From Dehalococcoidia bacterium (GTDB lineage Bacteria > Chloroflexota > Dehalococcoidia > Lucifugimonadales > JAGWBF01): DNA of 64,000 bases. Below are positions 11,270-48,873 of the stretch, piece after piece. The number at the start of each line of letters is the position of its first letter. Positions within the stretch are counted from its first letter, which is position 1. The position numbers were made by a program, and so were the translations under genes. A model generated the notes under the pieces. It saw only the letters and a program-made list of their open reading frames with translations. It was not told the origin of the DNA and did no database searches. The stretch is taken from positions 801,660-865,659 of the forward strand of contig CBDCZB010000004.1 in the NCBI GenBank assembly GCA_965224415.1, given 5' to 3'.

Positions 11270-11296
11270 CTCATCACTAACGGAGGAAGGGCTCCT

Positions 11297-11367
11297 CTGG
11301 ATTCCGGCCTGCGCCGGAAAGACGGGGGATACCCCCCTCTCCCCTGGGAGAGGGCTGGGGTGAGGGC
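11297..11367. repeat. GC-rich palindromic intergenic element (REP-like), copy A
   Basis: Two hairpins, TTCCGGC-ctgc-GCCGGAA and CCCTCTCCC-ctg-GGAGAGGG, followed by CTGGGGTGAGGG. Related sequence occurs at 24402..24438 and 26965..27100. Confidence 0.6.
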
Positions 11368-12470: not shown

Positions 12471-12770
12471 CCCATCACCTCCAATCCACCATACACGCGG
12501 TTGCAAACAACGTTACCCTTAGCGCTAACACAAATTGGGGTTCTTTGTCCATCTGATGTTGTCACAACCCCAATATCGATAACCCGGAGAGCAGCTTTGC
12601 ATCCAAGGATAGCTTGACACACATATTTTCCGGACTGGCGAACAGGTTCCGGAGCATGAATTGACAAGTGGAGTCCGGACGTTTACGGTTACATCAATGC
12701 TCCCCGTCGTCCACTTGTCGTAATGGCAGGTTGATTGGCGGGGTTGTTATTTTGTCACTGATTACGAACT

Positions 12771-13388: not shown

Positions 13389-13414
13389 GGTCGGACGGAG
13401 GCTGACACCCCCGG

Positions 13415-14176: not shown

Positions 14177-14355
14177 ACTGCCCGTCCAAGTCCTTAGATA
14201 TAGGGTTCGGAGGAGATTATACGACAAGTGTGTGCGGGTCAACGGAAGTTATGTCCATTCCGGCGCTGATATTTCCCGTTCCTTTTGTTATACTTCCACC
14301 AAAATGCCGGTCTCAGGACTCACGGCAACAAAATACTGAACCAGGGGGGAATCCG

Positions 14356-15549: not shown

Positions 15550-15550
15550 C
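15508..15550 (+). repeat. Direct repeat copy 1 (3' end of the LLM gene)
   Basis: ATCCCCGCCCTCAAGGAGATCAAGCTCCAACCCTACGAATAGC. The last 25 bp are identical to 15921..15945 and the upstream 18 bp are diverged. Confidence 0.75.
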
Positions 15551-15645
15551 TGGGGCCCGCATCCGAACCGCCGCCTCGTCTCCAAGCCCGCCGGAGGGGA
15601 GCGGCTATGGGGCACCTGGCGCCTTACATAGAGGAGAATGCAACG

Positions 15646-15870
15646 ATGACCGCCAAGAGTTCGGAAGTCATCTTCGAGGTCATCGAAGACGAAAACGACG
15701 GCGGATACTCGGCCAGTGCGCTTGGGTACGGCATCCACACTGGCGGCGAAACAATCGAGGAACTTCGTCAAAACGTCAGGGAAGCCGTCGATTGCTACTT
15801 CGACGCGACGATGGAACGACCCGCGTTGATTCGCCTTCACTTCGTACGAGACGAAGTCTTTGCACTGTGA
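15646..15870 (+). CDS. HicB-like antitoxin family protein (HicB_lk type)
   Basis: GAGGAG RBS before ATG 15646. IFEVIEDENDGGYSASALGYGIHTGGETIEELRQNVREAVDCYF...LIRLHFVRDEV is the pattern I recognise from HicB-like antitoxins that precede hicA. Confidence 0.6.
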   Translation: MTAKSSEVIFEVIEDENDGGYSASALGYGIHTGGETIEELRQNVREAVDCYFDATMERPALIRLHFVRDEVFAL

Positions 15871-15944
15871 GGCTTCCGCGCAATCTGCACAGTGCTAAAG
15901 CTATCCCCGTCTTTACGGAAATCAAGCTCCAACCCTACGAATAG
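15867..15944 (+). pseudogene. hicA toxin remnant (first ~13 codons) fused to a duplicated LLM 3' end
   Basis: GTGA start/stop overlap with the hicB-like gene. VRLPRNLHSAKAI resembles the HicA N-terminus (M-K-LPR-x-LSG-K-E-L), and the frame then runs into IPVFTEIKLQPYE*, i.e. the repeat. Confidence 0.45.
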
Positions 15945-15945
15945 C
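15903..15945 (+). repeat. Direct repeat copy 2 (orphan LLM 3' end)
   Basis: ATCCCCGTCTTTACGGAAATCAAGCTCCAACCCTACGAATAGC. Further loose similarity continues downstream (GGGCGCATCCCGAA vs GGCCCGCATCCGAA). Confidence 0.75.
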
Positions 15946-16078
15946 GGGCGCCGGGCGCATCCCGAAATTGACGCTGGCGAGTGACACCTGCCTTTTGGCA
16001 GGGCGGGTGGCGTGGGATATAATCCCCCCATGCCCCGCCACACAGAACCTAGTATTCGGCCAATCTGGCATTGTCAGT

Positions 16079-17275
16079 TAGTACGTGAGCCCAGACAGGA
16101 TGCTACCTTGGGGATAGACGAAGGGTTGTGGGATGTGAGGTGGTCATGGTGCAGGAGAAGTACGGAGTCCGGCTGGCAACACAGGAAAAGGGACGGCTCA
16201 GGAAGATGATCAGGGCTGGGAGGAGTTCCGCACAGGCGATTACCCGGGCCCGCATCCTGATCAAGATAGATGAGGGCTGGACCGCCCCCCAGGTGGCCAC
16301 CGCACTGGACGTGTCGGAGCGGACCGTGTTCCGCACCAAGCGGCGGTATGCCGAGGAAGGACTGGACGAGGTGCTGAGGCACCATAACCAGGTCAACCGG
16401 CCCAGAAAGGTGGATGAAAGGGTGGAGGCCCACCTGATAGCCTTGGCCTGCAGCCCGGTGCCCGACGGTCATGACCACTGGACCATGCGGGCCCTGGCGG
16501 GCAAGGTGGTGGAGTTGGGATTGGTGGAGTCTTTATCTCCCGAGACGGTCCGCCTGCGGCTAAAAAAAACACGCTCAAGCCGTGGCTCAAGAAACAATGG
16601 TGCATCCCCAAGGTAGGTGGAGAGTTCGTGGCGGCCATGGAGGACGTGCTGGATCTCTACGCCGAGCCCTACGATCCGCAGAGGCCGGTGGTCTGCTTTG
16701 ACGAGACCTCCACCCAGTTGCTGGCCGACGTGAGGGAACCGCTGCCGGCAAAGCCTGGGAGGCCGAGGCGTGAGGACTACAAATACCAGCGGGGAGGGAC
16801 GCGCAACCTGTTCCTCACCTGTGAGCCTCGCCGGGGCTGGCGCCACGTGGCGATAACCCGGCAACGCACCATGCAGGACTTCGCTCAGCAGATGCGGTGG
16901 CTGGTGGATGAGGCCTACCCCGATGTCCCGGTGATTCGGCTGGTTCTCGACAATCTGAACACGCATCGGATGGCCTCGCTTTACGAGACTTTCCCGGCGG
17001 CCGAGGCCCGGCGCATCGCCAAGCGGCTGGAGTTGCACCACACTCCCAAGCACGGAAGCTGGCTGAATATGGCGGAGATCGAGTTCAGCGTGCTGGCCCG
17101 GGCCTGCCTGCGCGGACGCAACGGAGATGAGGACAGCCTGGAAAGAGCCGTCAGCGCCTGCGTGTCAGAGCGGAACGCGATAGGAGCTACCATTAACTGG
17201 CGGTTCACTGCCCAAGACGCCAGACGCAAACTCCATCGCCTCTATCCCTGCCAATCCTGATTTGGTTCAGTACTA
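16079..17275 (+). mobile_element. IS630-family insertion sequence, copy 1
   Basis: Imperfect terminal IRs TAGTACGTGAGCCCAGACAGG / CCTGATTTGGTTCAGTACTA with TA at both junctions (IS630 targets TA). Two-ORF transposase. Confidence 0.85.
16128..17260 (+). CDS. IS630-family transposase (HTH + DDE_3, -1 frameshift on an A8 run)
   Basis: ORF1 carries the HTH/winged-helix part. A shift on A8 (16562..16569) gives LKKNTLKPWLKKQWCIPK...MEDVLDLYAEPYD, continuing into the DDE part (VVCFDETS, LDNLNTH, WLNMAEIEF). Confidence 0.85.
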
Positions 17276-17301
17276 GCGCCAACAACGACCTCGCCGACTT
17301 G

Positions 17302-20136
17302 ATGCGGCCCATCCTCCCGGCCTGGGACGTGAGGTCGGAGAACACCCAGGTCATCAGCGGACGGCCCGGTCTCCAACCCGACATCCTGATTACGGCTCAG
17401 GGCCGTTCACCAGTTGTGATAGAAGCGGAATACATGCCTGCCCATACAGCGGAGGCGGAAGCCAAGTCCCGCCTAGGCCTGTCCGTCACGGTCCATCCCC
17501 GTTCCATAGAGGGAACCATCGCCCTACGCTACCCAGAGGAAGTCAGCGACGCCGACGACCTCCAGGCCGCCCTCAACAGCGCCCGTCTCTCCTACTGCGT
17601 TTTTACGGTAGACAAGTACAGTCGGACCCCGACGCCGGAAATCCAAAGCATTGCACGGTTTCCCGAGTCGGGGTGGCTCGAAGGTACTGTAGTTGACCTG
17701 GCCGACATCATCCGCCTGGTGTCTATCCCCCAACTGGCTGTGGACAGGGCGGCTGACGCCTTGGAGGGCGGCATTGAACGGGCGGCGGTGGAGCTGGACG
17801 AGTTGGCCAAGTCGCGGCCCGGCGTCACCGCCGCGATCGCTCGACTGTTGGGTATGGGCAACGTGCCCCAGACCCGCCGCATGGCCGGCGCCATCATTGC
17901 CAACGCCCTTGTGTTTCACGAGCGCATCGCCGGAATGCACGAGGGAATAAAACCGCCGCGGATGGTGTGTGGGCCTGACGTCGCCAATCCCCAGAACGAG
18001 ACACTGGTTGCATGGACCGAAATCCTGGAAGTCAACTACTGGCCCATTTTCGCCATCGGCAAGGACATTCTCCAACAGCTTCCGGCGGCCAGCGCCGCCA
18101 ACATCCTTAGGACAGTTCAGTACACGGTTGGTGAAGTGAACGCGGCAGGCATCAACAACGCCCACGACCTGACCGGACGCATCTTCCAGCGGCTCATCGC
18201 TGACCGCAAGTATTTGGCCACCTTCTACACCCTGCCCGCCTCGGCTGCGCTGCTGGCCCGGCTGGCGGTGTCCAAAATCAAGGGTGTGGACTGGAGCGAC
18301 GCAGAGGCCATAGGCAAGCTGCGGATTGCCGACTTCGCGTGCGGCACAGGCGCCCTTCTTGCCGCAGTCTACGAGCAGATAGCCACCCTCTACGAACGCG
18401 CCGGAGGCGACCCGGCGAAACTGCATCAGGTGATGATGGAAGAGGCGCTCTTCGGCTGCGATGTGATGCCCTCGGCAATCCACATCACAGGCTCAACCCT
18501 GTCGGGGGGCCAGCCGGCAGTACAATTCTTTCGATCCCGGCTCTACACCCTTCCCTACGGACGACAGCGGGACCTCAGCGTCTCCGTCGGCTCTCTGGAG
18601 CTGTTGCAGTCCTCGGCGACGGGGGTCTTGTTCAACAGCAGCGACCCTGCCTTACGCACCAGCAGCATCGGTGAGGAGACCGCCGCCTACGTCATCGCAG
18701 ACGTTCCCGACGAGGGCTTCGACCTGGTGATAATGAACCCTCCGTTCACCAGCAACACCAAACACAGGGATGCCGACGAGGGGATTCTAAATGCCGCTTT
18801 TGCCGCCTTTGATACCACTGAAGAAGACCAGTCCAGAATGGCGAATCGTCTTAAGCAGCTTGCCGCGGACACTTGTTACCACGGCCATGCCGGGGAGAGT
18901 TCTGTATTCGCGGCCCTCGCCGACAAGAAACTACGCCCCAACGGCGTTATCGCGTTGGTGCTGCCCTTCACGGCAATCAACGGAGCTTCGTGGTCGAGGT
19001 TCAGGGAACTTATTGCCACACAATATAACGACGTTACGATTGTAAGCATCGCGGCCAATGGACACGACATGTCCTTTTCATCGGACACCGGTATGGCAGA
19101 GTGTCTTATCATAGGCCGCAAAATAGGCCCGACTGAAAAGCCTGTCTACCGCGGGAACTTCGTTTCTTTACAAGACAGGCCGTCAAATTTTGCCGATGCT
19201 CAAGAACTTTCAAAGGCCTTTCTGTCTGCCGTGGAAACACGTCGCTTGGAAGACGGGCCTTATGGAGGCATACCCATCTATAGCGGAGACGCCTTGGCAG
19301 GAGAGTTGCTGGACGCTCCCATCGACAGGTACGACGCCGGATGGAGCGCCGCCCGAATTCGGGACGCCTCAGTAGCCCAGACCGCGTATTCGCTGTATTC
19401 CGGAAAGCTTTGGCTGCCTGCGGAACCGGTAGCCCATGCCATGCCTGTAGCGCAGTTGAGCCAGGTCGGGCAGCGGGGACTGGATTCTCAGTTATTCATT
19501 AGCTCTGCCCACAAAGGTCCCTTCACCAAGGCGCCGCCCAGCCCCACCGCCACCTATCCCGCACTGTGGAACCACGACGCCAAGAATGAAACGCGAATGG
19601 TCTGTGCCCCTGACTCTCAATTGTTGGTCAGGCCCGGAATGGAGGCCAAGTCCGCCGAGGTCTGGACTACCGCCAGCCGCATCCATATCAACCGTGATTT
19701 CACTTTCGGTTCACAGACTCTCGCTATTGCATTTACTGAACTAAGGTCTATAGGTGGCCGAGTATGGCCCAACGTGATTTTCAGCGACGACAGATTCGAG
19801 TACGCCTTTATGATATGGGGAAACAGCACGTTAGGGCTCCTGAGCTACTGGTGGCACGCCAGCCGGCAGCAATCGAGTAAGGCTGGAATGACCATCCGCT
19901 CAGCCGAATCCCTGCCCGTGTTGGACCTTCGCGCCTTGAGCGACGAACAGTTAGCGACGGCCAGGGAGATATTCGAGGAGTTCCGGGACAAGGAACTGAT
20001 GCCCGCCTACCTGACCGATGCCGACCCCAACCGTGCTCTGCTCGACCGCCGGGTGGTCTGCGACCTGCTGGGTTTCGATGAAAGCGTCTATGAAGGCGTC
20101 AGGCGGCTGGCCGCCAAGTGGTGCGCCGAACCGTGA
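17302..20136 (+). CDS. Large N6-adenine DNA methyltransferase-domain fusion protein (possible type IIG/IIL-like RM enzyme)
   Basis: Motif I RIADFACGTGALL and motif IV DLVIMNPPFTSN in gamma-class order. ~330-aa N-terminal region with a nuclease-like PDILI...VVIEAEY segment (catalytic Lys not evident). ~400-aa C-terminal region that could be a target-recognition domain. No separate REase or S gene alongside. Confidence 0.6.
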   Translation: MRPILPAWDVRSENTQVISGRPGLQPDILITAQGRSPVVIEAEYMPAHTAEAEAKSRLGLSVTVHPRSIEGTIALRYPEEVSDADDLQAALNSARLSYCVFTVDKYSRTPTPEIQSIARFPESGWLEGTVVDLADIIRLVSIPQLAVDRAADALEGGIERAAVELDELAKSRPGVTAAIARLLGMGNVPQTRRMAGAIIANALVFHERIAGMHEGIKPPRMVCGPDVANPQNETLVAWTEILEVNYWPIFAIGKDILQQLPAASAANILRTVQYTVGEVNAAGINNAHDLTGRIFQRLIADRKYLATFYTLPASAALLARLAVSKIKGVDWSDAEAIGKLRIADFACGTGALLAAVYEQIATLYERAGGDPAKLHQVMMEEALFGCDVMPSAIHITGSTLSGGQPAVQFFRSRLYTLPYGRQRDLSVSVGSLELLQSSATGVLFNSSDPALRTSSIGEETAAYVIADVPDEGFDLVIMNPPFTSNTKHRDADEGILNAAFAAFDTTEEDQSRMANRLKQLAADTCYHGHAGESSVFAALADKKLRPNGVIALVLPFTAINGASWSRFRELIATQYNDVTIVSIAANGHDMSFSSDTGMAECLIIGRKIGPTEKPVYRGNFVSLQDRPSNFADAQELSKAFLSAVETRRLEDGPYGGIPIYSGDALAGELLDAPIDRYDAGWSAARIRDASVAQTAYSLYSGKLWLPAEPVAHAMPVAQLSQVGQRGLDSQLFISSAHKGPFTKAPPSPTATYPALWNHDAKNETRMVCAPDSQLLVRPGMEAKSAEVWTTASRIHINRDFTFGSQTLAIAFTELRSIGGRVWPNVIFSDDRFEYAFMIWGNSTLGLLSYWWHASRQQSSKAGMTIRSAESLPVLDLRALSDEQLATAREIFEEFRDKELMPAYLTDADPNRALLDRRVVCDLLGFDESVYEGVRRLAAKWCAEP

Positions 20137-20462
20137 GTCCACGGCGGCAAGGCCCGGCCGAGCGACGCTAAACTGATTGTTTAATCTCGGCAAAATCTTC
20201 CATAGGCATAAGGGCATTGTTCAACAAGTCTCTGTGGATTCGTGATGACGTAATTCGGTTCGAGACCAACTGCGAACCATGTGGCCATCCGATTTTTGTC
20301 TCCAGGCCCGATATCGTATCCATGAGTGTGACTCTGGGCGCGTAAAATCGCTTCGCGTCCAGCGAAAATATCCCTGACCGTCGGGGATTCCCCACCTCTT
20401 GTTCATTCTGGTATACTGTGCCCGACTCGTTCCCCCAATCGAGGTTTAACAAGGAGAAAAGC

Positions 20463-22752: not shown

Positions 22753-23928
22753 ATGGCGGAGAATACCATCAACGGCAAGGTCGCCATCGTCGGGATCGGC
22801 GAAAGTGACTACTACAAGAGGGGCCAAAGCCCCTACGGCGAGTTCCACCTGTGTCTTCAGGCCATCATGGCCGCCGCAGAGGACGCCGGAATCGATCCTC
22901 GTGAGATAGACGGCTTCGCCTCTTACGCGAACGACCGCAACGACCCAATCCGCATATCCACCGCGCTGGGGTCGCCCAAGGTGGGCTTCAACACCATGTT
23001 CTGGGGCGGCGGCGGCGGCGGCGGTTCGGGAGCCGTAGGCAACGCAGCGGCTGCCCTCGTCGCAGGGTACGCCAAGTACGTAGTGGCCTACAGAGGACTG
23101 GCCCAGGGTCAGTTCGGACGTTTCGGTCAGGCCCTTGCGGCCCGCCAGTCCAGGGTGATGGACCTCGCCGCCTACCAGGCGCCCTTCGGATGCATGTCCG
23201 CCGGGCAAACGCTGGCGGCGATGCAGGCCCAACGCCACATGCACGATTATGGAACAACCCAAGACCAGCTTGGTGCAATAGCGCTGGCATCCTACAAGCA
23301 CGCACAGACGAACCCCCGCGCCGTCATGTACGGCAGGCCGTTGACGATGGAGGCGTACCACGCCTCCCGCTGGATCGCCCAACCTCTCCATCTGTTCGAC
23401 TGCTGCCAGGAGACTGACGGCGCCGCCGCCGTGATTCTGACAACGGCCGAGCGGGCCAAGGACGTGAAACAGACGCCAGCTTACCTCATGGCCGCCGCCC
23501 AGGGCAGCGGCTTTCGATACGGCGCCGGCGCTATGAACCGCAGCATGGTCCACTCCAACCACGACGCTCTCTCTGACGCCCTCTGGGGAATGGCCGGAGT
23601 CGAGCCAAAGGACGTGGACGTGGCCCAGTTCTACGAGAACTTCACGCCCTTGGTGCTAATGTCCATAGAGGACTACGGGTTCTGCGAAAAGGGCGAAGGC
23701 GGGCCTTTCGTCGAGGGAGGCCGCGTTGAATGGCCCGACGGAGAGCTCCCCATAAACACCAGCGGCGGTAATCTTGCCGAAGCCTACACCCATGGATTCG
23801 AAATCATCACTGAAGCGGTGAGACAGGTGCGCGGAACTTCCACGGCCCAGGTGGAAGGCGCGGAGATATCCTTCGTAGCCAGCGGCCCGGGAGTCTCACC
23901 CCTCAGCTCTTTGATAGTGCGGAGGTAA
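22753..23928 (+). CDS. Thiolase-like / lipid-transfer (SCP-x, Ltp-type) protein
   Basis: VAIVGIGESDYYKRG N-terminus, DCCQETDGAAAVIL, NTSGGNLAEAYTHG. The thiolase fold lacks the classic biosynthetic-thiolase N-terminal Cys context, as in Ltp-type proteins. Confidence 0.75.
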   Translation: MAENTINGKVAIVGIGESDYYKRGQSPYGEFHLCLQAIMAAAEDAGIDPREIDGFASYANDRNDPIRISTALGSPKVGFNTMFWGGGGGGGSGAVGNAAAALVAGYAKYVVAYRGLAQGQFGRFGQALAARQSRVMDLAAYQAPFGCMSAGQTLAAMQAQRHMHDYGTTQDQLGAIALASYKHAQTNPRAVMYGRPLTMEAYHASRWIAQPLHLFDCCQETDGAAAVILTTAERAKDVKQTPAYLMAAAQGSGFRYGAGAMNRSMVHSNHDALSDALWGMAGVEPKDVDVAQFYENFTPLVLMSIEDYGFCEKGEGGPFVEGGRVEWPDGELPINTSGGNLAEAYTHGFEIITEAVRQVRGTSTAQVEGAEISFVASGPGVSPLSSLIVRR

Positions 23929-24372
23929 ATGATGGCCGACTACTACCTTCCGGAAGGAATGCCTCTTCCCGGTTGGATTCCCGACAGCGCCGACGCCGGC
24001 TTCTGGGAAGCCTGCAGGCGCCACGAGCTAGTGGTCCAGCAATGCTCGGACTGCAAGAACTTCCAACACACTCCGGAGATAATTTGCTATGCATGCCACT
24101 CCTTCAATTACGAATGGGTGAAAACCAGCGGCAAGGGAGTGGTGTACAGTTACATGAACAGCGAGTACCCGGTGCACCCCGCCCTCCGGGAGCGGGTGCC
24201 CTACAACGTGGCTCTGGTGGAAATCCCCGACGCGGGGAACGTCCGGATGGTTGGCAACATCGTGGACGCCGACTACGATGACATATACATCGGGATGCCC
24301 GTGGAGGTCTACTTCGAGGACCACACTGAGGAGGAAGTTACCCTTCCCCTCTGGAAACGGGCCGACAAATAG
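23929..24372 (+). CDS. DUF35 Zn-ribbon/OB-fold protein
   Basis: Zn-ribbon CSDCKNFQHTPEIICYAC followed by an OB-fold segment (GKGVVYSY...VALVEI). Start abuts the thiolase-like stop (TAAATG). Confidence 0.8.
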   Translation: MMADYYLPEGMPLPGWIPDSADAGFWEACRRHELVVQQCSDCKNFQHTPEIICYACHSFNYEWVKTSGKGVVYSYMNSEYPVHPALRERVPYNVALVEIPDAGNVRMVGNIVDADYDDIYIGMPVEVYFEDHTEEEVTLPLWKRADK

Positions 24373-24401
24373 CCCGTTCAACGTGAAATCCAGCATAACA
24401 G

Positions 24402-24438
24402 CCCCCTCTCCCAAAGGGAGAGGGTTGTGGTGAGGGTG
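24402..24438. repeat. GC-rich palindromic intergenic element, copy B
   Basis: CCCCCTCTCCC-aaa-GGGAGAGGG then TTGTGGTGAGGG. Same family as 11297..11367. Confidence 0.6.
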
Positions 24439-24458
24439 GAAAAGAAGGAGGCTGCCGA

Positions 24459-25646
24459 ATGGAGTTGCAATTCACCAAGGAACAGAACGCTTTCCGCCAG
24501 GAAATCCTTGATTTCCTGAAGCAGGAGTTGCCCACCAACTGGGAACCCATGGAGCAGGGCGAACACCACCACAAGGACAAGTTCGACTTCAGCCGGAACA
24601 TGGCCACCAAGCTGGCCAACAAGGGTTGGCTGACCATGCACTGGCCGTTGGAGTACGGCGGCCAGGGACGCTCCCACGTTGAGCAGATGATTTACCGGGA
24701 AGAAATCGCCTACAACGGCGTGCCCGGCACCGACCTGGGAGCCGGAGCCGTGGCGTGGGTGGGACCCACCCTTATTCTCTACGGCACTGACGAACAGAAG
24801 GAGGAGCACCTGCCCCCCATCACTAGGGCCGAGAGGTACTGGTGCACCTTCTACAGCGAGCCTGAGACGGGTTCGGACTTGGCGGGCTTGCAAACCAGCG
24901 CCGTGGAGGACGGCGACGATTTCGTGGTCAACGGTTCCAAGATATGGACCTCCGGAGCCCACATCGCCGACTGGGGCTGGCTGGCCGCCCGCACCGACCC
25001 TGACGCCCCCAAGCACCGGGGCATCAGCCTGATGCTGGTGGACATGAAGAGTCCAGGCATCACCGTCCGCCCGGTCATAAAAATGACCGGAGACCATGAG
25101 TTCAACCAGGTCTACTTCGACAACGTCCGCATCCCCAAGAAGAACCTGGTGGGTGAGCTGAACCGGGGCTGGTACACCCTGGCCGTGGCGCTGGACTTCG
25201 AGCGGTCGGGGATTTCCTACTCCGCAGTGGGAAAGAGGAACCTGGAGAACTTGGTGCAGTACACGCGGGAGACCACCCATAAGGGCGAACCGCTGGCCAA
25301 AGACCCCATCGTGCGCAACAAGCTGGTGGACACCGCCATCGAGATTCAGGTGTCCCGGTGGCTGTCCTACAGGGTGGGCTGGATGCAAGGCCAGGGCCTT
25401 GTCCCCAACTACGAGGCCTCCATGTCCAAGGTGTACGGCTCGGAGCTCCAGCAGCGCCTCGCCAACCGCGGCCTCGAGATACTGGGCCAGTACGGCCCCC
25501 TGTGGAAGGACTCAAAGTGGGCGCGGCTCAACGGAACCTTCTCCAGAGCCGCGTTGGACCAGTACTCCGCCACCATCGGCGCCGGCACGTCGGAAATCCA
25601 GCGCAACATCATCGCCCGCAGGGGTCTGGGCCTGCCCAGAGACTAA
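24459..25646 (+). CDS. Acyl-CoA dehydrogenase family protein (tandem paralogue 1 of 3)
   Basis: 395 aa with YSEPETGSDLAGL, GSKIWTSGAH and a C-terminal GAGTSEIQRNIIA. AAGGAGG RBS. Confidence 0.85.
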   Translation: MELQFTKEQNAFRQEILDFLKQELPTNWEPMEQGEHHHKDKFDFSRNMATKLANKGWLTMHWPLEYGGQGRSHVEQMIYREEIAYNGVPGTDLGAGAVAWVGPTLILYGTDEQKEEHLPPITRAERYWCTFYSEPETGSDLAGLQTSAVEDGDDFVVNGSKIWTSGAHIADWGWLAARTDPDAPKHRGISLMLVDMKSPGITVRPVIKMTGDHEFNQVYFDNVRIPKKNLVGELNRGWYTLAVALDFERSGISYSAVGKRNLENLVQYTRETTHKGEPLAKDPIVRNKLVDTAIEIQVSRWLSYRVGWMQGQGLVPNYEASMSKVYGSELQQRLANRGLEILGQYGPLWKDSKWARLNGTFSRAALDQYSATIGAGTSEIQRNIIARRGLGLPRD

Positions 25647-25780
25647 CCTCCAGCCGTAATACTGGCATACAGAGAGGGAGCGGAATGTCCGCTCCCCTCT
25701 TCAATATTCCCCTCATTGACCGCCACGGCTTCGCTGAATAGACTTAGCGCCATGCCCAGCGACGCCCAGGAGCGTGTCTC

Positions 25781-26968
25781 ATGCAAATGAAGTTCACGGA
25801 TGAGCAGGAAGCCTTCCGCCAGGAAATACTTGACTTCTTCAATGAGGTTTTGCCCAGCGCCTGGGAGCCTATGGAGCTGGGCGGCATGTACCACCCCGAC
25901 CATCGCGAGTTCACCGCCCTCATGGCAAAGAAGCTGGCGGAAAATGGCTGGCTCACCATGCACTGGCCTGTGGAGTATGGCGGCCAGGGCAGATCCCACG
26001 TAGAGCAGGCCATATACAGCGACGAGGTCTCCTACATGGGCGTTCCAGGAACGGACCTGGGAGCGGGAGCCGTGGGTTGGATAGGCCCAACCCTCATACG
26101 CTACGGCACTGAAGAGCAGAAGAAGGAGCACCTGCCGCCCATAACCAGGGCCGAACGGTACTGGTGCACCTTGTACAGCGAACCCGAGGCCGGCTCCGAC
26201 CTGGCCAGCCTTCAGACCAGCGCCATCCAGGACGGGGACGACTTCGTGGTGAACGGCTCCAAGATTTGGAACTCCGGCGCACACATCGCCGACTGGGGCT
26301 GGCTTGCGGCCCGGACCGACCCCGACGCGCCCAAGCACCGGGGCATCAGCCTAATGATGGTGGACATGAAGACTCCCGGCGTCACCGTCCGGCCCGTCAT
26401 CAAGATGACAGGCGACCACGAGTTCAACCAGGTCTTCTTTGACAACGTCCGTGTCCCCAAGAGCAACCTCGTGGGCGAGCTGGACCAGGGCTGGTACACC
26501 ATGGCCGTGGCGCTGGACTTCGAACGGTCAGGCGTATACTTCCCCGCAGTGGCCAGAAGGAACCTGGAGACGCTGGTGCAATACGCCCAAGAAACCACCC
26601 ACGGCGGCCAACCACTGTCCCAGAACAAGGTCGTGCGGAACAAGCTGGCGGACGCGGCCATCGACGTGGAGGTCTCCCGCTGGCTCTCTTACAGGGTGGC
26701 CTGGATGCAGGGTGAAGGCATGGTCCCCAACTACGAAGCCTCGATGGCCAAGGTCTACGGTTCGGAGCTCCAGATTAGGCTGGCCAACACAGGCATGGAG
26801 ATTCTGGGCCAGTACGGACAGCTGTGGAAGGGTTCCAAGTGGGCCAGACTCTCCGGTTCCTTCGCCCATACCTACCTAAACGCCTTTTCCTTCAACATAG
26901 CCGGAGGCACCGGAGAAATCCAGCGGAACATTATGGCCACCAGGGGCCTGGGGCTGCCCCGGCGTTAG
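25781..26968 (+). CDS. Acyl-CoA dehydrogenase family protein (tandem paralogue 2 of 3)
   Basis: 395 aa, collinear with the other two paralogues, with most positions identical by eye. Confidence 0.85.
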   Translation: MQMKFTDEQEAFRQEILDFFNEVLPSAWEPMELGGMYHPDHREFTALMAKKLAENGWLTMHWPVEYGGQGRSHVEQAIYSDEVSYMGVPGTDLGAGAVGWIGPTLIRYGTEEQKKEHLPPITRAERYWCTLYSEPEAGSDLASLQTSAIQDGDDFVVNGSKIWNSGAHIADWGWLAARTDPDAPKHRGISLMMVDMKTPGVTVRPVIKMTGDHEFNQVFFDNVRVPKSNLVGELDQGWYTMAVALDFERSGVYFPAVARRNLETLVQYAQETTHGGQPLSQNKVVRNKLADAAIDVEVSRWLSYRVAWMQGEGMVPNYEASMAKVYGSELQIRLANTGMEILGQYGQLWKGSKWARLSGSFAHTYLNAFSFNIAGGTGEIQRNIMATRGLGLPRR

Positions 26969-27100
26969 CCCCTTCTCCCCCTCATCCTAACCTTCTCCCG
27001 CCTGTGGGGATGAGGCAAGCCCACTTTACACCCAACTCCGTCTTTCCGGCGCAGGCCTGAATCCAGTCCCGCCGCGGCGGAGAGAGGGCTCTTGTGGGGA
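26965..27100. repeat. GC-rich palindromic intergenic element, composite copy C
   Basis: Contains CCGTCTTTCCGGCGCAGGCCTGAATCCAG, which is the reverse complement of copy A's CTGGATTCCGGCCTGCGCCGGAAAGACGG with 1 mismatch. Also has a CCTCATCC...GGGATGAGG hairpin and a forward GGAGAGAGGGCTCTTGTGGGG arm. Confidence 0.55.
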
Positions 27101-27173
27101 AAGTTGACCGCCTGCGTTCCAGGCCATAGACTTGTCGCTAGCCTATTAGCCAAGTGTCCCGCCGGAGGAGCCT

Positions 27174-28361
27174 ATGCACATGGAGTTCACCCCGGAGCAA
27201 GAAGCCTTTCGCCAGGAGATAAAGGACTTCTTCAAAGAAACGCTGCCTGCCGACTTCGAGCCTATGGATTCCGGGGCCATGTACCATGCCGACACCCGGG
27301 AGTTTGCCCACAACATGGCCAAGAAGCTGTCCGCAAAGGGATGGCTCACTATGCACTGGCCCATCGAGTACGGAGGCCAGAGCAGGTCCTACATCGAACA
27401 GGCCATATACAGTGACGAGGTGGCCTATCACGGTTCTCCCGGCACCGATGTTGGCGGAGGGGCCGTGGCCTGGATTGGGCCGACCATCATACGATTCGGC
27501 ACCGAGGAGCAAAAGAAGGAACACCTGCCCCCGATCACCAGAGCAGAGAAGTATTGGACCACGCTGTACAGCGAACCGGAGACCGGCTCCGACCTGGCCG
27601 GACTGATAACCTCGGCCACCGAAGATGGCGACGAATACGTAATCAACGGGTCCAAGATATGGAACTCAGGCGCCCACATCGCCGACTGGGGCTGGATAGC
27701 CGTCAGGACCAACCCCGACGCTCCCAAGCACCGGGGTATAAGCCTGATGATGGTGGACATGACGACCCCCGGAATCACCGTCCGGCCCGTCATAAAGATG
27801 ACCGGCGAACATGAGTTCAACCAAGTCTACTTTGACAACGTCCGGGTGCCCAAGAAGAACCTCATCGGAGAGCAGGACCGGGGCTGGTACACAATGGCGG
27901 TGGCTCTGGACTTCGAGCGGGCCGGAGTCCACTACTCTTCGAACGGCAGAAGGAACCTGGAGCGCCTGGTGGAGTACGCCAGGGAGACCAACTACAACGG
28001 CAAGCCTCTTTCGCAGAATAAAGTCGTCCGAAACAAGCTCGTGAACCTGGCCGTCGAGATACAGGCCTCCCGATGGATTGCCTACAGAGTCGCCTGGATG
28101 CAGGGCCAGGGCCAGGTGCCCAACTACGAGGCGTCGATGTCCAAGGTATTCGGCTCAGAGTTGCAGCAGAAGGTGGCCAACACAGGCATGGAAATCCTGG
28201 GCCAGTACGGGCAGCTATGGAAGAACTCCAAGTGGGTTAAGCTCCGGGGCAGCCTCTCCAGGGCGTATCTCAACCAATTCGGTGCGAACATCGCCGGCGG
28301 AACGGGCGAGATACAGCGGAACATCATAGCCACCAGGGGCTTGGGACTGCCCCGCCAGTAG
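27174..28361 (+). CDS. Acyl-CoA dehydrogenase family protein (tandem paralogue 3 of 3)
   Basis: 395 aa with the same motifs as paralogues 1 and 2. Confidence 0.85.
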   Translation: MHMEFTPEQEAFRQEIKDFFKETLPADFEPMDSGAMYHADTREFAHNMAKKLSAKGWLTMHWPIEYGGQSRSYIEQAIYSDEVAYHGSPGTDVGGGAVAWIGPTIIRFGTEEQKKEHLPPITRAEKYWTTLYSEPETGSDLAGLITSATEDGDEYVINGSKIWNSGAHIADWGWIAVRTNPDAPKHRGISLMMVDMTTPGITVRPVIKMTGEHEFNQVYFDNVRVPKKNLIGEQDRGWYTMAVALDFERAGVHYSSNGRRNLERLVEYARETNYNGKPLSQNKVVRNKLVNLAVEIQASRWIAYRVAWMQGQGQVPNYEASMSKVFGSELQQKVANTGMEILGQYGQLWKNSKWVKLRGSLSRAYLNQFGANIAGGTGEIQRNIIATRGLGLPRQ

Positions 28362-28395
28362 GGTCAACGCGGGATTAGATTTATAGGGGGCGGCA

Positions 28396-29553
28396 ATGTC
28401 ATATAAGGAACTTCGGGGCAAAGTAGCCATCGTCGGCGCTGATGAAGCCGACGAAAACGGCGTCCAGCCCAACAAGTCGGTCTTGCAACTCCACGCCGAA
28501 GGCGCGGTGAACGCCATGCACGACGCCGGCCTGAAAAAGAGCGACATTGACGGCCTCTTCACGGCCGGCACCAACGCCGCTGTCCTGGCCGAATACCTGG
28601 GCATGAGGCCCCGGTATGTCGACGGCACGACTGTGGGAGGCTGCTCCTTCGTGATTATGATGGAGCACGCCATGTTGGCCCTTGAACATGGAATGTGCGA
28701 CTACGCCCTCATCAGCCACGGCCAGAGCGGACGCAGCCGCATCGGAGAACCCCGCGCCCCCGTGGACCCATCCACGCCCGCAGGCCAGTTCGAGCAGCCC
28801 TTCGGAGCCCTTGGCCCTCCTACTCTGTTCTCGATGCCCATCCTCAGGTACATGAAGGAGACGGGAACCACTCTGGAGAACCTGGCCGAGGTGGCAGTGG
28901 CCACCCGAAAATGGGCCAGCCTCAATCCCAGGGCCATAATGCGGGAACCCCAGACCGTCGACGACGTGCTCAGCGCCCGGATGATATGCTACCCCCTCAC
29001 CTTGCCCATGTGCTGCCTGGTCACCGACGCTGCAGGATCAGTCATACTCACCACCGCCGACCGGGCCAAGGACTTGAAGCAGAAGCCAGTCTATCTGCTG
29101 GGGACGGGAGAGGCCCTAAGCCACTGGAGCATAGGACAGATGCCCGACTTCACCTGGTCCCACGCCTTCGAGACATCGGGCCAACGGGCTTTCGACATGG
29201 CAGGCGTAAAGCACGAGGACATTGATGTCGTGGAGTTTTACGACGCCTTCGTCCACACCCCCATCTTTGCCATCGAGGCGCTGGGGTTCTGCCCCAGAGG
29301 TGAGGGCGGTAGATTCGTTTCGGGCCAGAGGACCGCTCCCGGCGGAGAGTTCCCGATGAACACCAACGGCGGCGGCCTCTCCTACACCCACCCGGGGATG
29401 TACGGGATGTTCATCATACTGGAGGCCGTACGCCAGCTCCGGAGCCAGGGCGGAGACCGCCAGGTGGAGGGCGCCAAGACAGCCGTAGTGCATGGGCCGG
29501 GCGGAATGTTCGCCGCCTCTGGGACTGCCATTCTTGGCGTTGAGGTGCCGTAA
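28396..29553 (+). CDS. Thiolase-like / lipid-transfer (Ltp-type) protein
   Basis: VAIVGADEADE N-terminus, CCLVTDAAGSVILT, NTNGGGLSYTHPG. Followed by a DUF35 gene. Confidence 0.75.
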   Translation: MSYKELRGKVAIVGADEADENGVQPNKSVLQLHAEGAVNAMHDAGLKKSDIDGLFTAGTNAAVLAEYLGMRPRYVDGTTVGGCSFVIMMEHAMLALEHGMCDYALISHGQSGRSRIGEPRAPVDPSTPAGQFEQPFGALGPPTLFSMPILRYMKETGTTLENLAEVAVATRKWASLNPRAIMREPQTVDDVLSARMICYPLTLPMCCLVTDAAGSVILTTADRAKDLKQKPVYLLGTGEALSHWSIGQMPDFTWSHAFETSGQRAFDMAGVKHEDIDVVEFYDAFVHTPIFAIEALGFCPRGEGGRFVSGQRTAPGGEFPMNTNGGGLSYTHPGMYGMFIILEAVRQLRSQGGDRQVEGAKTAVVHGPGGMFAASGTAILGVEVP

Positions 29554-29615
29554 CTTGCGCCGGAATCCTTTAGTCACCAACTTCCCATGCCGTCAACCTC
29601 GATAGGAGAAACCCA

Positions 29616-30029
29616 ATGACGACACCGCAAAAGCCGCTTCCCAAAGCCACACCTGAAACAGAAGCCTTCTGGCAAGGCTGCAAAGAGGGAAAGCTGACGC
29701 TGCCGCGCTGCGGCGACTGCAACCAGCTCCACTACTACCCCAGGGCCATATGCCCCCACTGCTGGGGCCGAACATTGACCTGGGAGGAGTTGAGCGGCAA
29801 GGGCAAGCTCTACAGCTACGTCATAAGCCACCGCCCGGCGCCCGGCTTCCAGGAAGAAACGCCTTACGCCATTGCCGTTGTGGAACTGGACGAGGGGCCT
29901 CGCATGATGACCAACCTCACCGGCGTCGACCAGACGCCTGAAGCCCTCGTGCTGGACATGCCCCTGGAAATCACCTTCGAGGAGGTCACCGAAGAGGTGA
30001 CCATGTTCAAGTTCAAGCCCACGGGGTAG
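29616..30029 (+). CDS. DUF35 Zn-ribbon/OB-fold protein
   Basis: CGDCNQLHYYPRAICPHC Zn-ribbon plus an OB segment (GKGKLYSYV...IAVVEL). Confidence 0.8.
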   Translation: MTTPQKPLPKATPETEAFWQGCKEGKLTLPRCGDCNQLHYYPRAICPHCWGRTLTWEELSGKGKLYSYVISHRPAPGFQEETPYAIAVVELDEGPRMMTNLTGVDQTPEALVLDMPLEITFEEVTEEVTMFKFKPTG

Positions 30030-31803: not shown

Positions 31804-32097
31804 ATGCCGATAGAAGACCAGGCCTTTAAGTTCTCGACAAGGTGTGACCAGCCGCTAACCGCGGACTATTTGGAGCAGCTGGCTAAACACATCAGGAGCG
31901 GCCATTTACAGCTTTCAGCGGGGTCGGAAAGCATAGGGCTGACCGTCGTAGGGGAAATCAAGCTGGAGATTGCCGCTGAATCAAGGCTTGGGGAAGGGAA
32001 AAACAGCCTCCGCCTCGAACTCTCGTGGGAAGTCCCCATACCTCCCAAGCAAGAGCCACAGATCCGCATTGAGGGCAGCTCACCTGCTGCTGACTGA
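31804..32097 (+). CDS. Hypothetical protein (possibly amphi-Trp domain type)
   Basis: 97-aa ORF whose second half, GEIKLEIAAESRLGEGKNSLRLELSWE, resembles the beta-rich ...ELELKW pattern of amphi-Trp domain proteins. Weak. Confidence 0.35.
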   Translation: MPIEDQAFKFSTRCDQPLTADYLEQLAKHIRSGHLQLSAGSESIGLTVVGEIKLEIAAESRLGEGKNSLRLELSWEVPIPPKQEPQIRIEGSSPAAD

Positions 32098-32327
32098 ACC
32101 GACAAAGACCGCTCCAGAGAGAGCGATTCCACAGATTAGTCGCCTCTGACTCGGAAGCCCCGACCCGACCTCCGGCGCCAAGACGTCATCCGAATGAGTG
32201 CGGTGACAGCTCAATAGATGGAACCCGCCCGTAACGCCTATGGCAAGCGCCATAAAGAACCAGGGCGACTTGATCGACAACCCAGATTCAGCATCGATGT
32301 TGGCGCCTTCGATGCCGACCCGAATTA

Positions 32328-32423
32328 TGGCGGGAGTGGGAGGGAGTCGAACCCACCTACCCCGTGCTAACGAGGCACAACGGATTTGAAGTCCGCAAGA
32401 GCCACCGGGCCCCATCCACTCCC
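32328..32423 (-). tRNA. selC: tRNA-Sec (selenocysteine tRNA, anticodon TCA)
   Basis: 96 nt, folded by hand. 8-bp acceptor GGGAGUGG/CCACUCCC plus G plus CCA. 6-bp D-stem (GGGGCC/GGCUCU) with a 4-nt loop. Anticodon loop CUUCAAA. Long variable arm (GUGC...GCAC). T-loop UUCGACU. The 8-bp acceptor and 6-bp D-stem are the bacterial tRNA-Sec hallmarks. Confidence 0.9.
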
Positions 32424-32455
32424 ATTGCCGAGAGCGAGGCCGACGTTGGGACAGC

Positions 32456-32782
32456 CTATCCCAGCGCCGAATCTATCTTCTTCTGCAGGGTCCCCTTGGG
32501 CACGGCGCCTACGATTTGATCCACCGGCTGTCCGTCTTTGAACAACAGCAAAGTCGGTATGCTGCGTATACCGTATGCCATAGCGGTCCGGGGGTTGGAG
32601 TCCACGTCCACTTTGGCGAATTCCACTTTGCCGTCGTATTCGTTGGACAATTCGTCGACTATGGGCGCGACCATCTTGCAGGGCATGCACCAGTCAGCCC
32701 AGAAGTCCACCAGAACGGGCAACTCGGACTTCACGACCTTTTCATCAAAGTCCGCATCGGTCACTGCAACAGGTCCAGCCAT
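32456..32782 (-). CDS. trxA: Thioredoxin
   Basis: 108 aa with WADWCMPCKM active site and the cis-Pro region SIPTLLLF. Confidence 0.9.
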   Translation of the reverse strand: MAGPVAVTDADFDEKVVKSELPVLVDFWADWCMPCKMVAPIVDELSNEYDGKVEFAKVDVDSNPRTAMAYGIRSIPTLLLFKDGQPVDQIVGAVPKGTLQKKIDSALG

Positions 32783-32958
32783 CTATGTCTCCTTCGTAGG
32801 TGGACGTTCCTTTGGAACGCTGACGCCGTACTCACCTCAAGGTGGATTGGGTACAAGGTCAAGTGTATACGCCCCCCTTGTTTGGGTCAACCTACCGGGG
32901 TCCCGCTGCCTTGGCGCTTTCGCACGGTTGGGTTTATAGTGAGCGCCGGAGCAAGCCC

Positions 32959-34788
32959 ATGACCAAGACCAACCGCATAGGCCAACGGCTCACCGTAGAC
33001 CTGATACGCTGGGGCGATTCGGGAGATACGATAGCCCACTTAGACGGCGAGGATCTCCACGTCCTAGGAGGAATCCCAGGAGAGGAAGCTGTCGTCGAAA
33101 TTATCCGAGACCGGAAAGGGAGGGTTGCAGCCCAGGTGATGCAGACCCTAACTGAGTCCCCTGACCGGAGACTTCCGCCTTGTCCCTACTTCGGCCCTTG
33201 CACCGGGTGCCAGTGGCAGCACGTCGAGTACCGTCGCCAGCTAGAGATTAAGCGAGAAGCGGTGATAGCGGCCCTCGCCCAGGTCGGTCTGCCGGAAGCT
33301 CCGGTCGCGCCCACATTGGCCTCGCCGGAGGAGTTCGACTACCGGAACCACGCCCGTTTCACCGTCGGGCGAAAGTGGGGAGAGCTTGGTTTTGTCAACC
33401 GTGAGAGCAGGCGATTTATTCCGGTAACAAGCTGCATGTTGATGCAGCCTTGGATCAACCAAACGCTGGCCCACCTGCAGCGCAAGGCTGCCGAGACCTC
33501 TCAACTGTCCATCAGGTACGGGATGGAGTCGGGCGACTACCTGATACAGCCCCGGCTGAAGAACCCGGACATCGAGGTTGAATCGGGCCAGCCGCACTAC
33601 ACCGACATCATAGAGGGCCGCAGATTCCGGGTCGCAGCCTCTTCATTCTTCCAGGTGAACCCCAAGCAGGCGGAAGCTCTTGCCCGTCTTGTGAGAGACG
33701 GCCTGCGGCTCACCGGACAAGAGACGGTGGTGGACGCCTACGCTGGCGTCGCCGCCTTTGCCGTACTTGTGGCTGACCGCTGCCGCAGAGTCATCGCCAT
33801 CGAGGAATCGGCGTCGGCCATTAAAGACGCCGAGAGCAATATCGGAGGAGTGGACAACATAGAGTTGGTCCAAGCCAAGACGGAGGATGTCCTCGGCGGG
33901 ATGTCTCACCCGCCGGACGGCGTGGTCCTGGACCCGCCAAGGGCCGGCTGCCATCCCAGGGTACTGGATGCCCTCACTGACCTCAAACCCCGCCGTATTG
34001 TCTACGTTTCTTGCGAACCCGCCACGTTGAGCAGAGACTTGGCGGCTCTGTGCCAAGGGCCTTTCCAGCTGGAGTCAGTCCAGCCCGTGGATATGTTCCC
34101 CCAGACCCACCACGTGGAATGTGTGGCCGTGCTGGCCCTCCGAGACTCGGCGCCACAACCCAACGAGCCGGCCGTGAACCTTGTCCCCGTCCTCGCATCC
34201 ACGTCCCCACGCCGCAGGGAGCTTATGAGGCGAATGGGGAAAGCTTTTGACGTTGCGTGTCCCTCCGTCAACGAGGACGCTCTGCCCGGGGAGTCACCGT
34301 CTCACTTAGTGGAGCGGCTGGCTCTGGCAAAGGCCCGAAGCGTTCACGGCGACCAGTGCGACAGAGTCGTAATCGGGGCCGACAGTGTGGTGGTTCTGGA
34401 CGACCGGATTCTTGGCAAACCCGGAAGTTCGGACGACGCCCGCTCCATGCTGACGGCGTTGAGGGGCCGGGATCACGAGGTTTACACCGGAGTGGCCGTC
34501 GTAGGGCCAAATGGTGAAGCGGTTTCCAGCAAACGCAGCCGAGTCGTGATGCGGGAATACTCCGATGCGGAGATGGAGGCCTACGTCCTCTCAGGAGAGC
34601 CGATGGACAAGGCGGGCGGCTATGCCATACAAGACCAACACTTCCGCCCAGCTTCTCTTTTGGAAGGCTGTTACAATAACGTCATGGGGCTGCCCACCTG
34701 CCTGCTGGCGGACATGCTGGTCAAAGCGGGGTTGCCGCCTCACACGGTGGAGCGTCCGCCGGAATGCGCAAATTGCCCGGTAGAGTGA
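32959..34788 (+). CDS. Fusion protein: RlmD/RumA-family (uracil-5-)-RNA methyltransferase + Maf nucleoside-triphosphate pyrophosphatase
   Basis: The N-terminal ~430 aa carry a TRAM-like start, the Fe-S Cys cluster CPYFGPCTGCQWQH, SAM motif VVDAYAGVAAF and the catalytic region YVSCEP. There is no stop before the Maf module LASTSPRRRELM...GADSVVVLDDRILGKP...DKAGGYAIQD...NVMGLP. I checked codon by codon across the junction (34141..34260). Confidence 0.7.
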   Translation: MTKTNRIGQRLTVDLIRWGDSGDTIAHLDGEDLHVLGGIPGEEAVVEIIRDRKGRVAAQVMQTLTESPDRRLPPCPYFGPCTGCQWQHVEYRRQLEIKREAVIAALAQVGLPEAPVAPTLASPEEFDYRNHARFTVGRKWGELGFVNRESRRFIPVTSCMLMQPWINQTLAHLQRKAAETSQLSIRYGMESGDYLIQPRLKNPDIEVESGQPHYTDIIEGRRFRVAASSFFQVNPKQAEALARLVRDGLRLTGQETVVDAYAGVAAFAVLVADRCRRVIAIEESASAIKDAESNIGGVDNIELVQAKTEDVLGGMSHPPDGVVLDPPRAGCHPRVLDALTDLKPRRIVYVSCEPATLSRDLAALCQGPFQLESVQPVDMFPQTHHVECVAVLALRDSAPQPNEPAVNLVPVLASTSPRRRELMRRMGKAFDVACPSVNEDALPGESPSHLVERLALAKARSVHGDQCDRVVIGADSVVVLDDRILGKPGSSDDARSMLTALRGRDHEVYTGVAVVGPNGEAVSSKRSRVVMREYSDAEMEAYVLSGEPMDKAGGYAIQDQHFRPASLLEGCYNNVMGLPTCLLADMLVKAGLPPHTVERPPECANCPVE

Positions 34789-47647: not shown

Positions 47648-48873
47648 TAGTACTCAGTCAACTTGGTTTTAGCATTTGTTTAAGAAAACGGACAATTAGG
47701 CTATCCTGCCTTGTGGGAAGTGTTGTTGGCGGGGGTGGCGGTGATGGTCAGGGACAAGCATTCGGTGCGGCTGGCGCTGGAACAACGAGAAGAACTCCAG
47801 CGTCTGATTCGGGTTGGGAAACACCCGGCCCGAATCACCGCCAGGGCCCGGATTCTCCTCAAGAGCGACGACGGTTGGCCTGCTCCCCAAGTGGCTGAAG
47901 CCCTGGATGTGGCCCTGGGCACAGTGTACCGGGTCAAGCGGCGCTTTACCGAAGAAGGGTTGTCCGGGGTTCTGAAGGACCGTCCCCAGGCCAACCGGCG
48001 CCGGAAGCTGGACGACCGGGGCGAGGCCCACTTGATCGCCCTGGCCTGCAGCCCGCCGCCGGCAGGGCATGACCACTGGACCCTGCGCCTGCTGGCTGGC
48101 AAGGTGGTGGAGTTGAAGTTGGCCTCCTCCATGTCTCACGAAGGGGTGCGCAAGCGTCTCAAAAAAACGCTCTCAAGCCCTGGCAGAAGAGGGAATCGCG
48201 CATTACCAAGGTGAGCGCGGAGTTCGTGGCCAACATGGAGGACCTGCTGGACCTCTATGCCGAACCCTATGACCACCGACGGCCGGTGGTCTGCTTTTAC
48301 GAGACATCGACCCAGTTGTTGGCCGAGACGCGGCCATCTCTGCCGACCCGGCCCGGAATTCCGCTTCGGCAGGACTACGAGCACCGGAGGGAGGGCGTCC
48401 GCAACCTGTTCCTGGCCTGTGAGCCGCTGGCGGGCTGGCGTCACGTGGCGGTGACCCGGCGGCGCACCATGGAGGACTTCGCCCATCAGATGCGTTGGCT
48501 GGTGGACGAAGCTTACCCGGAGACGCCGGTGGTGAGGGTGGTCATGGACAACCTGAACACGCACCGTCCGGCGTCCCTGTACGAGACGTTCCCGGCGGCA
48601 GAGGCCCGGCGGATTGCCAAGCGGCTGGAGTTCCACTACACCCCCAAGCACGGGAGTTGGTTGAACATGGCGGAAATCGAGTTCAGCGTACTATCCCGAT
48701 CCTGCTTGAAGCAGCGACTCCCCGACGAGGAGACGCTCCGGCGGGAAGTCCAGGCCCTGGTTAAGGAACGCAACGCCGCCCAAGCCACCATCCACTGGAG
48801 GTTCAACACCCAGGACGCCCGGACCAAACTTCACCGGCTTTACCCTTTTGATTCCAAAGTTGACTGACTACTA
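47648..48873 (+). mobile_element. IS630-family insertion sequence, copy 2 (diverged from copy 1)
   Basis: IRs TAGTACTCAGTCAACTTGG / CCAAAGTTGACTGACTACTA with TA at both junctions. Confidence 0.85.
47711..48867 (+). CDS. IS630-family transposase, probably inactive (frameshifted; first catalytic Asp replaced)
   Basis: Two ORFs join by a -1 shift on A7 (48161..48167). VVCFYETS where copy 1 has VVCFDETS, and ESRIT where copy 1 has QWCIP. Confidence 0.75.

Follow-up and report, generated by a model that had tools for sequence, protein, structure and literature searches.

A bacterial-type tRNA-Sec gene directly behind trxA in an uncultured lineage of Dehalococcoidia

Does the short element that follows a thioredoxin gene in this Dehalococcoidia bacterium encode a genuine selenocysteine tRNA, and does the organism read UGA as selenocysteine? 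Both had been proposed in a preliminary description of the stretch of DNA analysed here (64 kb, hereafter the window), which saw a 96-nt minus-strand tRNA-Sec (selC) adjoining trxA, with the bacterial 8/5 architecture and not that of a suppressor-like tRNA-Ser. The identification is fully supported: the locus is a bacterial 8/5 tRNA-Sec gene adjoining trxA. Sec decoding, the second part of the question, is likely, and what supports it is indirect.

ARAGORN calls five tRNA genes in the window, one of them a tRNA-SeC with the anticodon tca at position 35, located at 32328..32423 on the minus strand. These are the very coordinates first proposed, and the run with this program, suggested at that stage as a check, calls no other isotype there. 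When the whole window is compared with Rfam, the tRNA-Sec family RF01852 matches 32332..32423 (minus strand) over the full model (1-91 of 91). At 71.2 bits the match exceeds the gathering score of 47 by 24 bits, with E = 1.4e-12. The gene and its parts are the following.

32328..32423, minus strand: selC (tRNA-Sec), 96 nt with discriminator and CCA (ARAGORN, Rfam, identity of 11 sequences, covariation)
32416..32423, minus strand: 5' strand of the acceptor stem, GGGAGUGG (sequence and minimum-free-energy fold)
32398..32413, minus strand: D-arm, 6-bp stem GGGGCC/GGCUCU with the 4-nt loop CGGU (sequence and minimum-free-energy fold)
32380..32396, minus strand: anticodon arm, 5-bp stem GCGGA/UCCGU with the 7-nt loop CUUCAAA (sequence, ARAGORN, Rfam)
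32387..32389, minus strand: anticodon UCA (sequence, ARAGORN)
32357..32379, minus strand: long variable arm, 23 nt, 8-bp stem with the loop UAGC (minimum-free-energy fold)
32340..32356, minus strand: T-arm GUGGG-UUCGACU-CCCUC, 5-bp stem with one U·U at the second pair, 50:64 (sequence)
32332..32339, minus strand: 3' strand of the acceptor stem, CCACUCCC, pairing with GGGAGUGG over 8 bp
32331, minus strand: discriminator G, G73 (sequence)
32330..32328, minus strand: encoded CCA (sequence)

Every feature on which the first proposal leaned can be read from the sequence: the UCA anticodon, the 8-bp acceptor stem, the 6-bp D-stem with its 4-nt loop, the variable arm, the T-loop and a single U-U mismatch in the T-stem. 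All eight pairs of the acceptor stem GGGAGUGG/CCACUCCC are Watson-Crick, and two of the six pairs of the D-stem GGGGCC/GGCUCU are G·U. The acceptor/T branch has the bacterial 8/5 arrangement, 13 bp long; together with the RF01852 match and the tRNA-SeC call, it upholds the distinction from a suppressor-like tRNA-Ser. A role is stated in PMC6267555 for the UCA anticodon, the 8/5 branch, the D-stem and its loop, the variable arm, G73 and CCA. A sixth anticodon-stem pair, as drawn in the Rfam consensus, was considered and rejected, the two positions being U·U here and unpaired in relatives.

The unconstrained minimum-free-energy fold is the cloverleaf, in which only the two outer T-stem pairs flanking the U·U are left unformed. 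Its z-score is -1.3, a folding energy not unusual for the base composition. This value being uninformative, it is the covariance model and the comparative data, covariation included, that carry the case, and not thermodynamics.

E. coli selC, which belongs to the same Rfam family (RF01852), resembles the window's gene in its UCA anticodon, 13-bp 8/5 branch, 6-bp D-stem with 4-nt loop, long variable arm, G73 and CCA, and we take the anticodon stem-loop core GGACUUCAAAUCC to be common to both. The two differ in setting, the E. coli gene standing alone whereas the window's lies directly behind trxA. They differ also in that the window's gene carries U·U at 50:64 and has no sel genes nearby.

Homologues were collected from one genome per species with a pattern made of the anticodon arm and the T-loop. 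The scan returned 120 loci, mostly from Dehalococcoidia, and ARAGORN reads tRNA-Sec in 119 of them. These 119 species loci hold 86 distinct sequences, which we aligned, counting pairs on the cloverleaf. Among the 86 homologues 94.8% of the cells are paired, against 82.3% in shuffles and 44-61% when the partner is slid by 1-3 columns; on none of the five covariation measures does any of 500 shuffles attain the observed value. Two-sided compensatory changes are seen at 20 of the 32 stem pairs. They affect all eight pairs of the variable arm and five of the eight in the acceptor stem, and five of the six D-stem pairs covary, with 99.4% of their cells paired. As the anticodon arm was part of the search pattern, it does not vary among the homologues, and its stem is uninformative for covariation. 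The eighth acceptor pair, G-C in the window, is unpaired in 53 of the 86 relatives.

At closer range, the tRNA is present at the same place in each of ten related contigs, from strains or sister species, and its 96 nt are identical in 11 of 11 sequences, the window counted with those ten. Overall these contigs are 90-98.6% identical to the window. The figure is 96-98.6% for L001, L002 and L006-L010, and 90-94% for three closed genomes. Between trxA and the tRNA, 9 of the 32 columns of the spacer vary among strains, against none in the tRNA itself, and the strain sequences diverge immediately 3' of the CCA. Judged by this pattern of substitutions, the tRNA is under strong purifying selection within the lineage.

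The lineage itself can be followed through the neighbouring gene product, as the identical TrxA protein occurs on at least 19 public contigs. Long-read metagenome assemblies provide three of these as closed circles of 3.12-3.18 Mb, among them OZ240207.1 and OZ244780.1, GenBank chromosomes labelled 'MAG: Dehalococcoidia bacterium'. The genomes of the sister species measure about 3.1 Mb. A MAG labelled SAR202 cluster has a tRNA 93% identical to the window's, in the same trxA-selC arrangement.

The surroundings of selC on its 5' side, with the reading frame that overlaps it, comprise the following features.

32080..32415, minus strand: spurious 111-aa ORF overlapping the tRNA, not a gene (list of open reading frames; Pfam-negative)
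32424..32455, minus strand: 32-nt spacer from the trxA stop codon (TAG) to the 5' end of the tRNA (sequence)
32456..32782, minus strand: trxA, 108-aa thioredoxin with the active site WCMPC (PF00085 at 1.7e-34)
32862..32890, minus strand: sigma-70-like promoter match TTGACC-17-TACACT, upstream of trxA (consensus scan, 9/12)
32842..34788, plus strand: RlmD/TrmA-like tRNA (uracil-5) methyltransferase (residues 262-431) and Maf (450-628) in one ORF

The PF00085 gene is on the strand of the tRNA, with 32 nt between its stop codon and the tRNA's 5' end, so that selC does adjoin trxA as first stated. The 111-aa ORF, dismissed as spurious from the outset, has no Pfam match, and a gene is called at its position in none of the ten public contigs of the same lineage. 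The window's 32-nt spacer holds no terminator-like or promoter-like site between trxA and the tRNA. TTGACC-17-TACACT is the only sigma-70-like match that the consensus scan finds upstream of the tRNA on its strand, and we regard it as a candidate promoter for a trxA-selC transcript.

The arrangement reaches well beyond the close relatives: trxA is followed by tRNA-Sec on the same strand, across a gap of 10-139 nt, in 50 of the 119 species loci, and in these 50 TrxA is between 52% and 100% identical to the window's protein. Where the gap shrinks to 10-11 nt, a separate promoter has no room between the two genes. Given this spacing and the synteny in 50 of 119 loci, co-transcription is the simplest reading, and the comparison suggests that trxA and tRNA-Sec are transcribed together. 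A broader proposal would have a conserved trxA-selC mRNA-tRNA operon throughout a large Dehalococcoidia clade, the MAG labelled SAR202 among its members, with tRNA-Sec made solely as the 3' tail of the thioredoxin transcript; we put this forward tentatively, as a possible but rather doubtful extension.

A physical tie between selC and a protein gene, with joint expression likely, has a parallel in Alphaproteobacteria, where tRNA-Sec is nested inside selB (PMC8124441). There the partner is selB and the tRNA sits within the coding sequence, whereas here the partner is a thioredoxin gene and the tRNA begins 32 nt past its stop codon.

We also considered trxA itself as a selenoprotein gene and rejected the idea: each of the 67 TrxA homologues from the retrieved loci has CxPC and is free of in-frame stops, hence the neighbour of selC is not itself a selenoprotein. 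The residues between the two cysteines of TrxA deserve a separate remark. The window shares its WCMPC active site with 13 other sequences; the canonical WCGPC is found in most relatives, and CAPC, CQPC or CVPC in the remaining ones, the middle residue varying in the clade.

Divergently from trxA, on its upstream side, lie the RlmD-like methyltransferase-Maf fusion, tatA/tatC, a DUF5131 gene and a 2-oxoacid dehydrogenase cluster. The fusion, whose two domains are both related to the modification of nucleic acids, is a single 609-aa gene call in 9 of the 10 related contigs; in the remaining one, L002, it is called at 519 aa with the same two domains. Downstream of selC come a gene for an Amphi-Trp-domain protein and one for a fatty-acid desaturase.

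These two downstream genes are common to most strains, and the window shows neither an integrase nor foreign DNA at the 3' end of selC. A sister strain differs here: in L002 (ERZ25071132:ctg775736_7x_l, 10456..20327) unrelated sequence, at least 9.9 kb of it, takes the place of the DNA that directly follows the CCA of tRNA-Sec. A tyrosine integrase with the domains Arm-DNA-bind_3, Phage_int_M and Phage_integrase starts 149 nt past the CCA. No repeat of the tRNA 3' end occurs within the L002 locus read, and the far end of the island lies beyond it. E. coli selC serves as an integration site for integrase-bearing islands, and the L002 insert is likewise an island integrated at selC.

Mobile DNA is found elsewhere in the window, and the larger features away from selC are listed here.

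10000..20200: lower-GC stretch (0.54-0.56 at 10-14 kb)
10466..11245: IS5-type DDE transposase
16128..17260 and 47711..48867: IS630-like element in two copies, each with an HTH ORF followed by a DDE_3 ORF
22753..30029: tandem array of three 395-aa acyl-CoA dehydrogenase paralogues (24459, 25781, 27174)
54662..56293: large transposase-like ORF (read by eye only)
58609..58896, 58951..59310 and 59256..60248: three consecutive ORFs like pieces of a large serine recombinase (read by eye only; N-terminus ...RVAIYARVSSERQ...)

The genome is rich in IS elements, and the IS content near selC differs between strains, L004 and L006 having extra transposases. The stretch 10000..20200 encodes a Schlafen AlbA_2 protein, an NYN-domain protein, transposases and a 945-aa Eco57I-like restriction-modification methylase, and looks like a mobile or defence island. 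At the other end of the window, the last of the recombinase-like pieces (region 58609..60259) runs into a tRNA-Asn gene (60185..60259, minus strand); the region 58609..60259 is probably a decayed integrative element at tRNA-Asn. The acyl-CoA dehydrogenase array is flanked by pairs of thiolase-like and ChsH2/DUF35 OB-fold genes. Its copy number depends on the strain, and in L004 and L005 an 838-aa PPC-domain protein replaces one copy.

We then turn to the machinery that would put the tRNA to use. By tblastn, selA, selB and selD are absent from the 64-kb window in any frame (E. coli and Dehalococcoidia queries) and from about 20 kb around the locus in the ten related contigs. The preliminary description had warned that ORFs ended or split by TGA would need a second look; within the 64-kb window this warning meets with no case. 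No credible TGA-interrupted gene emerges when ORF pairs linked by one TGA are sought: every two-piece read-through candidate was rejected, each lying opposite or overlapping a better-supported gene, and a TGA extension of the RlmD-Maf fusion was discarded as it overlaps tatA. TGA is the stop of 12 of the 48 supported genes in the window and is thus still an ordinary stop codon here.

Stop usage in these 48 genes, a small sample, is TAG 23, TAA 13 and TGA 12. Such scarcity of TGA and dominance of TAG are unusual for a genome of about 59% GC.

SelB was sought further afield. The search started from the SelB encoded beside selC in L081, whose best 120 homologues are all Dehalococcoidales-like and on small contigs; it continued through representatives at 50% identity and their cluster members, and then with P0124 and P0364 as queries. 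Clusters P0411 (45 members), P0441 (59) and P0415 (27) were covered for the members listed. We compared the finds with contigs of this species (609,292; 1,088,941 and 1,925,938 bp) and of sister species (3,120,875; 3,128,949 and 3,181,806 bp). Among the representatives and members listed, no SelB falls on contigs of this species or of two sister species.

The search did bring out a 622-aa SelB family on Chloroflexota chromosomes of 2-3.6 Mb, from ENA and NCBI assemblies, its members being 65-100% identical to one another. One of them is encoded on a closed contig of 3,136,402 bp, ERZ25072384:ctg341725, from an accession whose number is in the same range as those of the assemblies with the window's relatives. 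Its flanks are AspRS, HemN-like and ADH genes on one side, SecDF and YajC on the other. In the genomes of this family (L134, L135, L144-L147) selB is isolated, neither selA nor selD being found within 10 kb of it. Of the four genomes read, three show the order AspRS, HemN-like radical SAM, zinc ADH, SelB, SecF/SecD, YajC, and L146 has the same genes rearranged. The sel genes of the 622-aa-SelB genomes are dispersed, unlike those of Dehalococcoidales.

In Dehalococcoidales-type loci selC sits beside selB, selA and selD, whereas in the window's clade it sits behind trxA. Where selB is visible in genomes comparable to this clade, it occupies the AspRS-HemN-ADH-SelB-SecDF locus and is not beside selC. 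The tRNAs themselves are much alike: selC of Dehalococcoidales and other Dehalococcoidia (L073, L074, L081, L087) is 74-80% identical to the window's, with the same geometry and consistent stem covariation. Two Dehalococcoidales MAGs carry, beside selC, a selD gene with an in-frame TGA.

L087, 294..1319, minus strand: SelD with in-frame TGA, beside selC
L074, 3395..4417, plus strand: SelD with in-frame TGA, beside selC

In both, the TGA lies in GAG*ASK, which matches GAGCGCK at the start of E. coli SelD; it is hence a genuine Sec codon, and SelD is itself a selenoprotein in those MAGs. On the strength of the strong purifying selection on the tRNA, and of the full machinery in related Dehalococcoidia with its TGA-containing selD, the window's organism likely decodes UGA as Sec, a reasonable inference from selC. 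Its selA, selB and selD genes would then lie elsewhere in the genome.

Among other readings of the locus, the one that survives best is an orphan selC, in a lineage where SelA and SelB were lost or never present and the tRNA is a relic, a target of mobile elements or the bearer of a non-Sec role. A relic would gather substitutions; here, however, the 96 nt are invariant while the flanks vary and the surroundings differ by up to 10%, and the arrangement is kept in 50 species together with full covariation. The DNA read from this species does contain no sel genes, the SelB search did not land on the species' contigs among the representatives and members listed, and the locus has been used as an integration site in a sister strain, all of which would suit an orphan. 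Against this, SelB is abundant in closely comparable Chloroflexota genomes, and published work takes SelB and SelC together as the signatures of Sec decoding (PMC1273633). Altogether, we consider an orphan selC improbable.

The next question is whether a tRNA of this shape could have another identity, and it bears on the mismatch in the T-stem. Pair 50:64 is U·U in 37 of the 86 distinct homologues, the window included, and U-A, G·U or A-U elsewhere; in Dehalococcoidales-type selC it is U-A. The passage of PMC6267555 that cites Rudinger et al. 1996 gives the EF-Tu anti-determinants of tRNA-Sec as the last acceptor pair and the first two T-stem pairs. By that passage, the two weak positions of the molecule, the eighth acceptor pair and 50:64, both belong to these three pairs. 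The U·U at 50:64, shared by 37 of 86 sequences and situated where it makes functional sense, is thus a conserved trait and stable character of the lineage and not a sign of decay, and it probably helps to keep the tRNA off EF-Tu.

The anticodon is UCA, and Sec-like tRNAs of other identity came to light in searches for tRNA-Sec (PMC5389517). Such an identity has to be weighed here: the tRNA could be a selC*-type tRNA-Cys, an allo-tRNA, or an opal-suppressor tRNA-Ser carried by EF-Tu and reading UGA without SelB or SECIS. Allo-tRNAs and selC* tRNA-Cys share the long variable arm with the window's tRNA, and some have UCA and a longer acceptor stem. Their acceptor branch is of 12 bp, 8/4 or 9/3 (PMC5389517, PMC6267555), and their identity elements are other ones, whereas the window's tRNA combines a 13-bp 8/5 branch with G73. 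The 6-bp D-stem with its 4-nt loop is typical of tRNA-Sec, and the mismatch falls within what the cited passage delimits as the EF-Tu anti-determinant region. General suppression of UGA also sits badly with a codon that still ends a quarter of the supported genes (12 of 48). We find such an identity very improbable. Finally, a chance resemblance or a decayed pseudogene, with the U·U as degradation, could appeal to the one non-canonical T-stem pair and to a z-score of only -1.3, but is effectively refuted by the Rfam match (24 bits above threshold, E = 1.4e-12), by the recurrence of U·U in 37 of 86 homologues with U-A, G·U or A-U there in sister lineages, and by the remaining stems, which are intact and covary.

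The best explanation, to which we assign a probability of roughly 0.85, is a functional bacterial tRNA-Sec gene, the pathway proposed below and co-transcription with trxA included. Transcription of selC would most likely start at the trxA promoter and yield a trxA-tRNA transcript with tRNA-Sec as its 3' part, from which the normal tRNA-processing enzymes would cut it. SerRS would charge it with serine, recognizing the long variable arm and G73 as identity elements, and SelA would turn Ser-tRNA into Sec-tRNA with selenophosphate made by SelD, for which it would need the 13-bp 8/5 acceptor/T branch and the 6-bp D-stem (PMC6267555). SelB, and not EF-Tu, would deliver Sec-tRNA to an in-frame UGA followed by a downstream SECIS hairpin; EF-Tu would be kept out by the 13-bp branch and the weak 50:64 region. 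A TGA outside a SECIS context would stay a stop codon.

We now consider what the finding amounts to. This is a canonical tRNA-Sec gene, found in an uncultured lineage, and as such a matter of ordinary annotation; the known picture of selenocysteine decoding is unchanged, and nothing here will surprise a specialist. Three points are mildly new. selC has moved from the sel operon, where Dehalococcoidales have it, to the 3' end of trxA, and at least 50 species keep it there; T-stem pair 50:64 has a conserved U·U; and the 3' end of tRNA-Sec is an integration site in a sister strain. For annotation, the tRNA gene should replace the spurious 111-aa ORF, and selenoproteins of this uncultured Dehalococcoidia lineage may be cut short by gene callers. 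If the trxA-selC operon proposed above is real, the supply of Sec-tRNA would be tied to the thiol-redox response, and thioredoxin might also be the reductant that feeds selenium to SelD.
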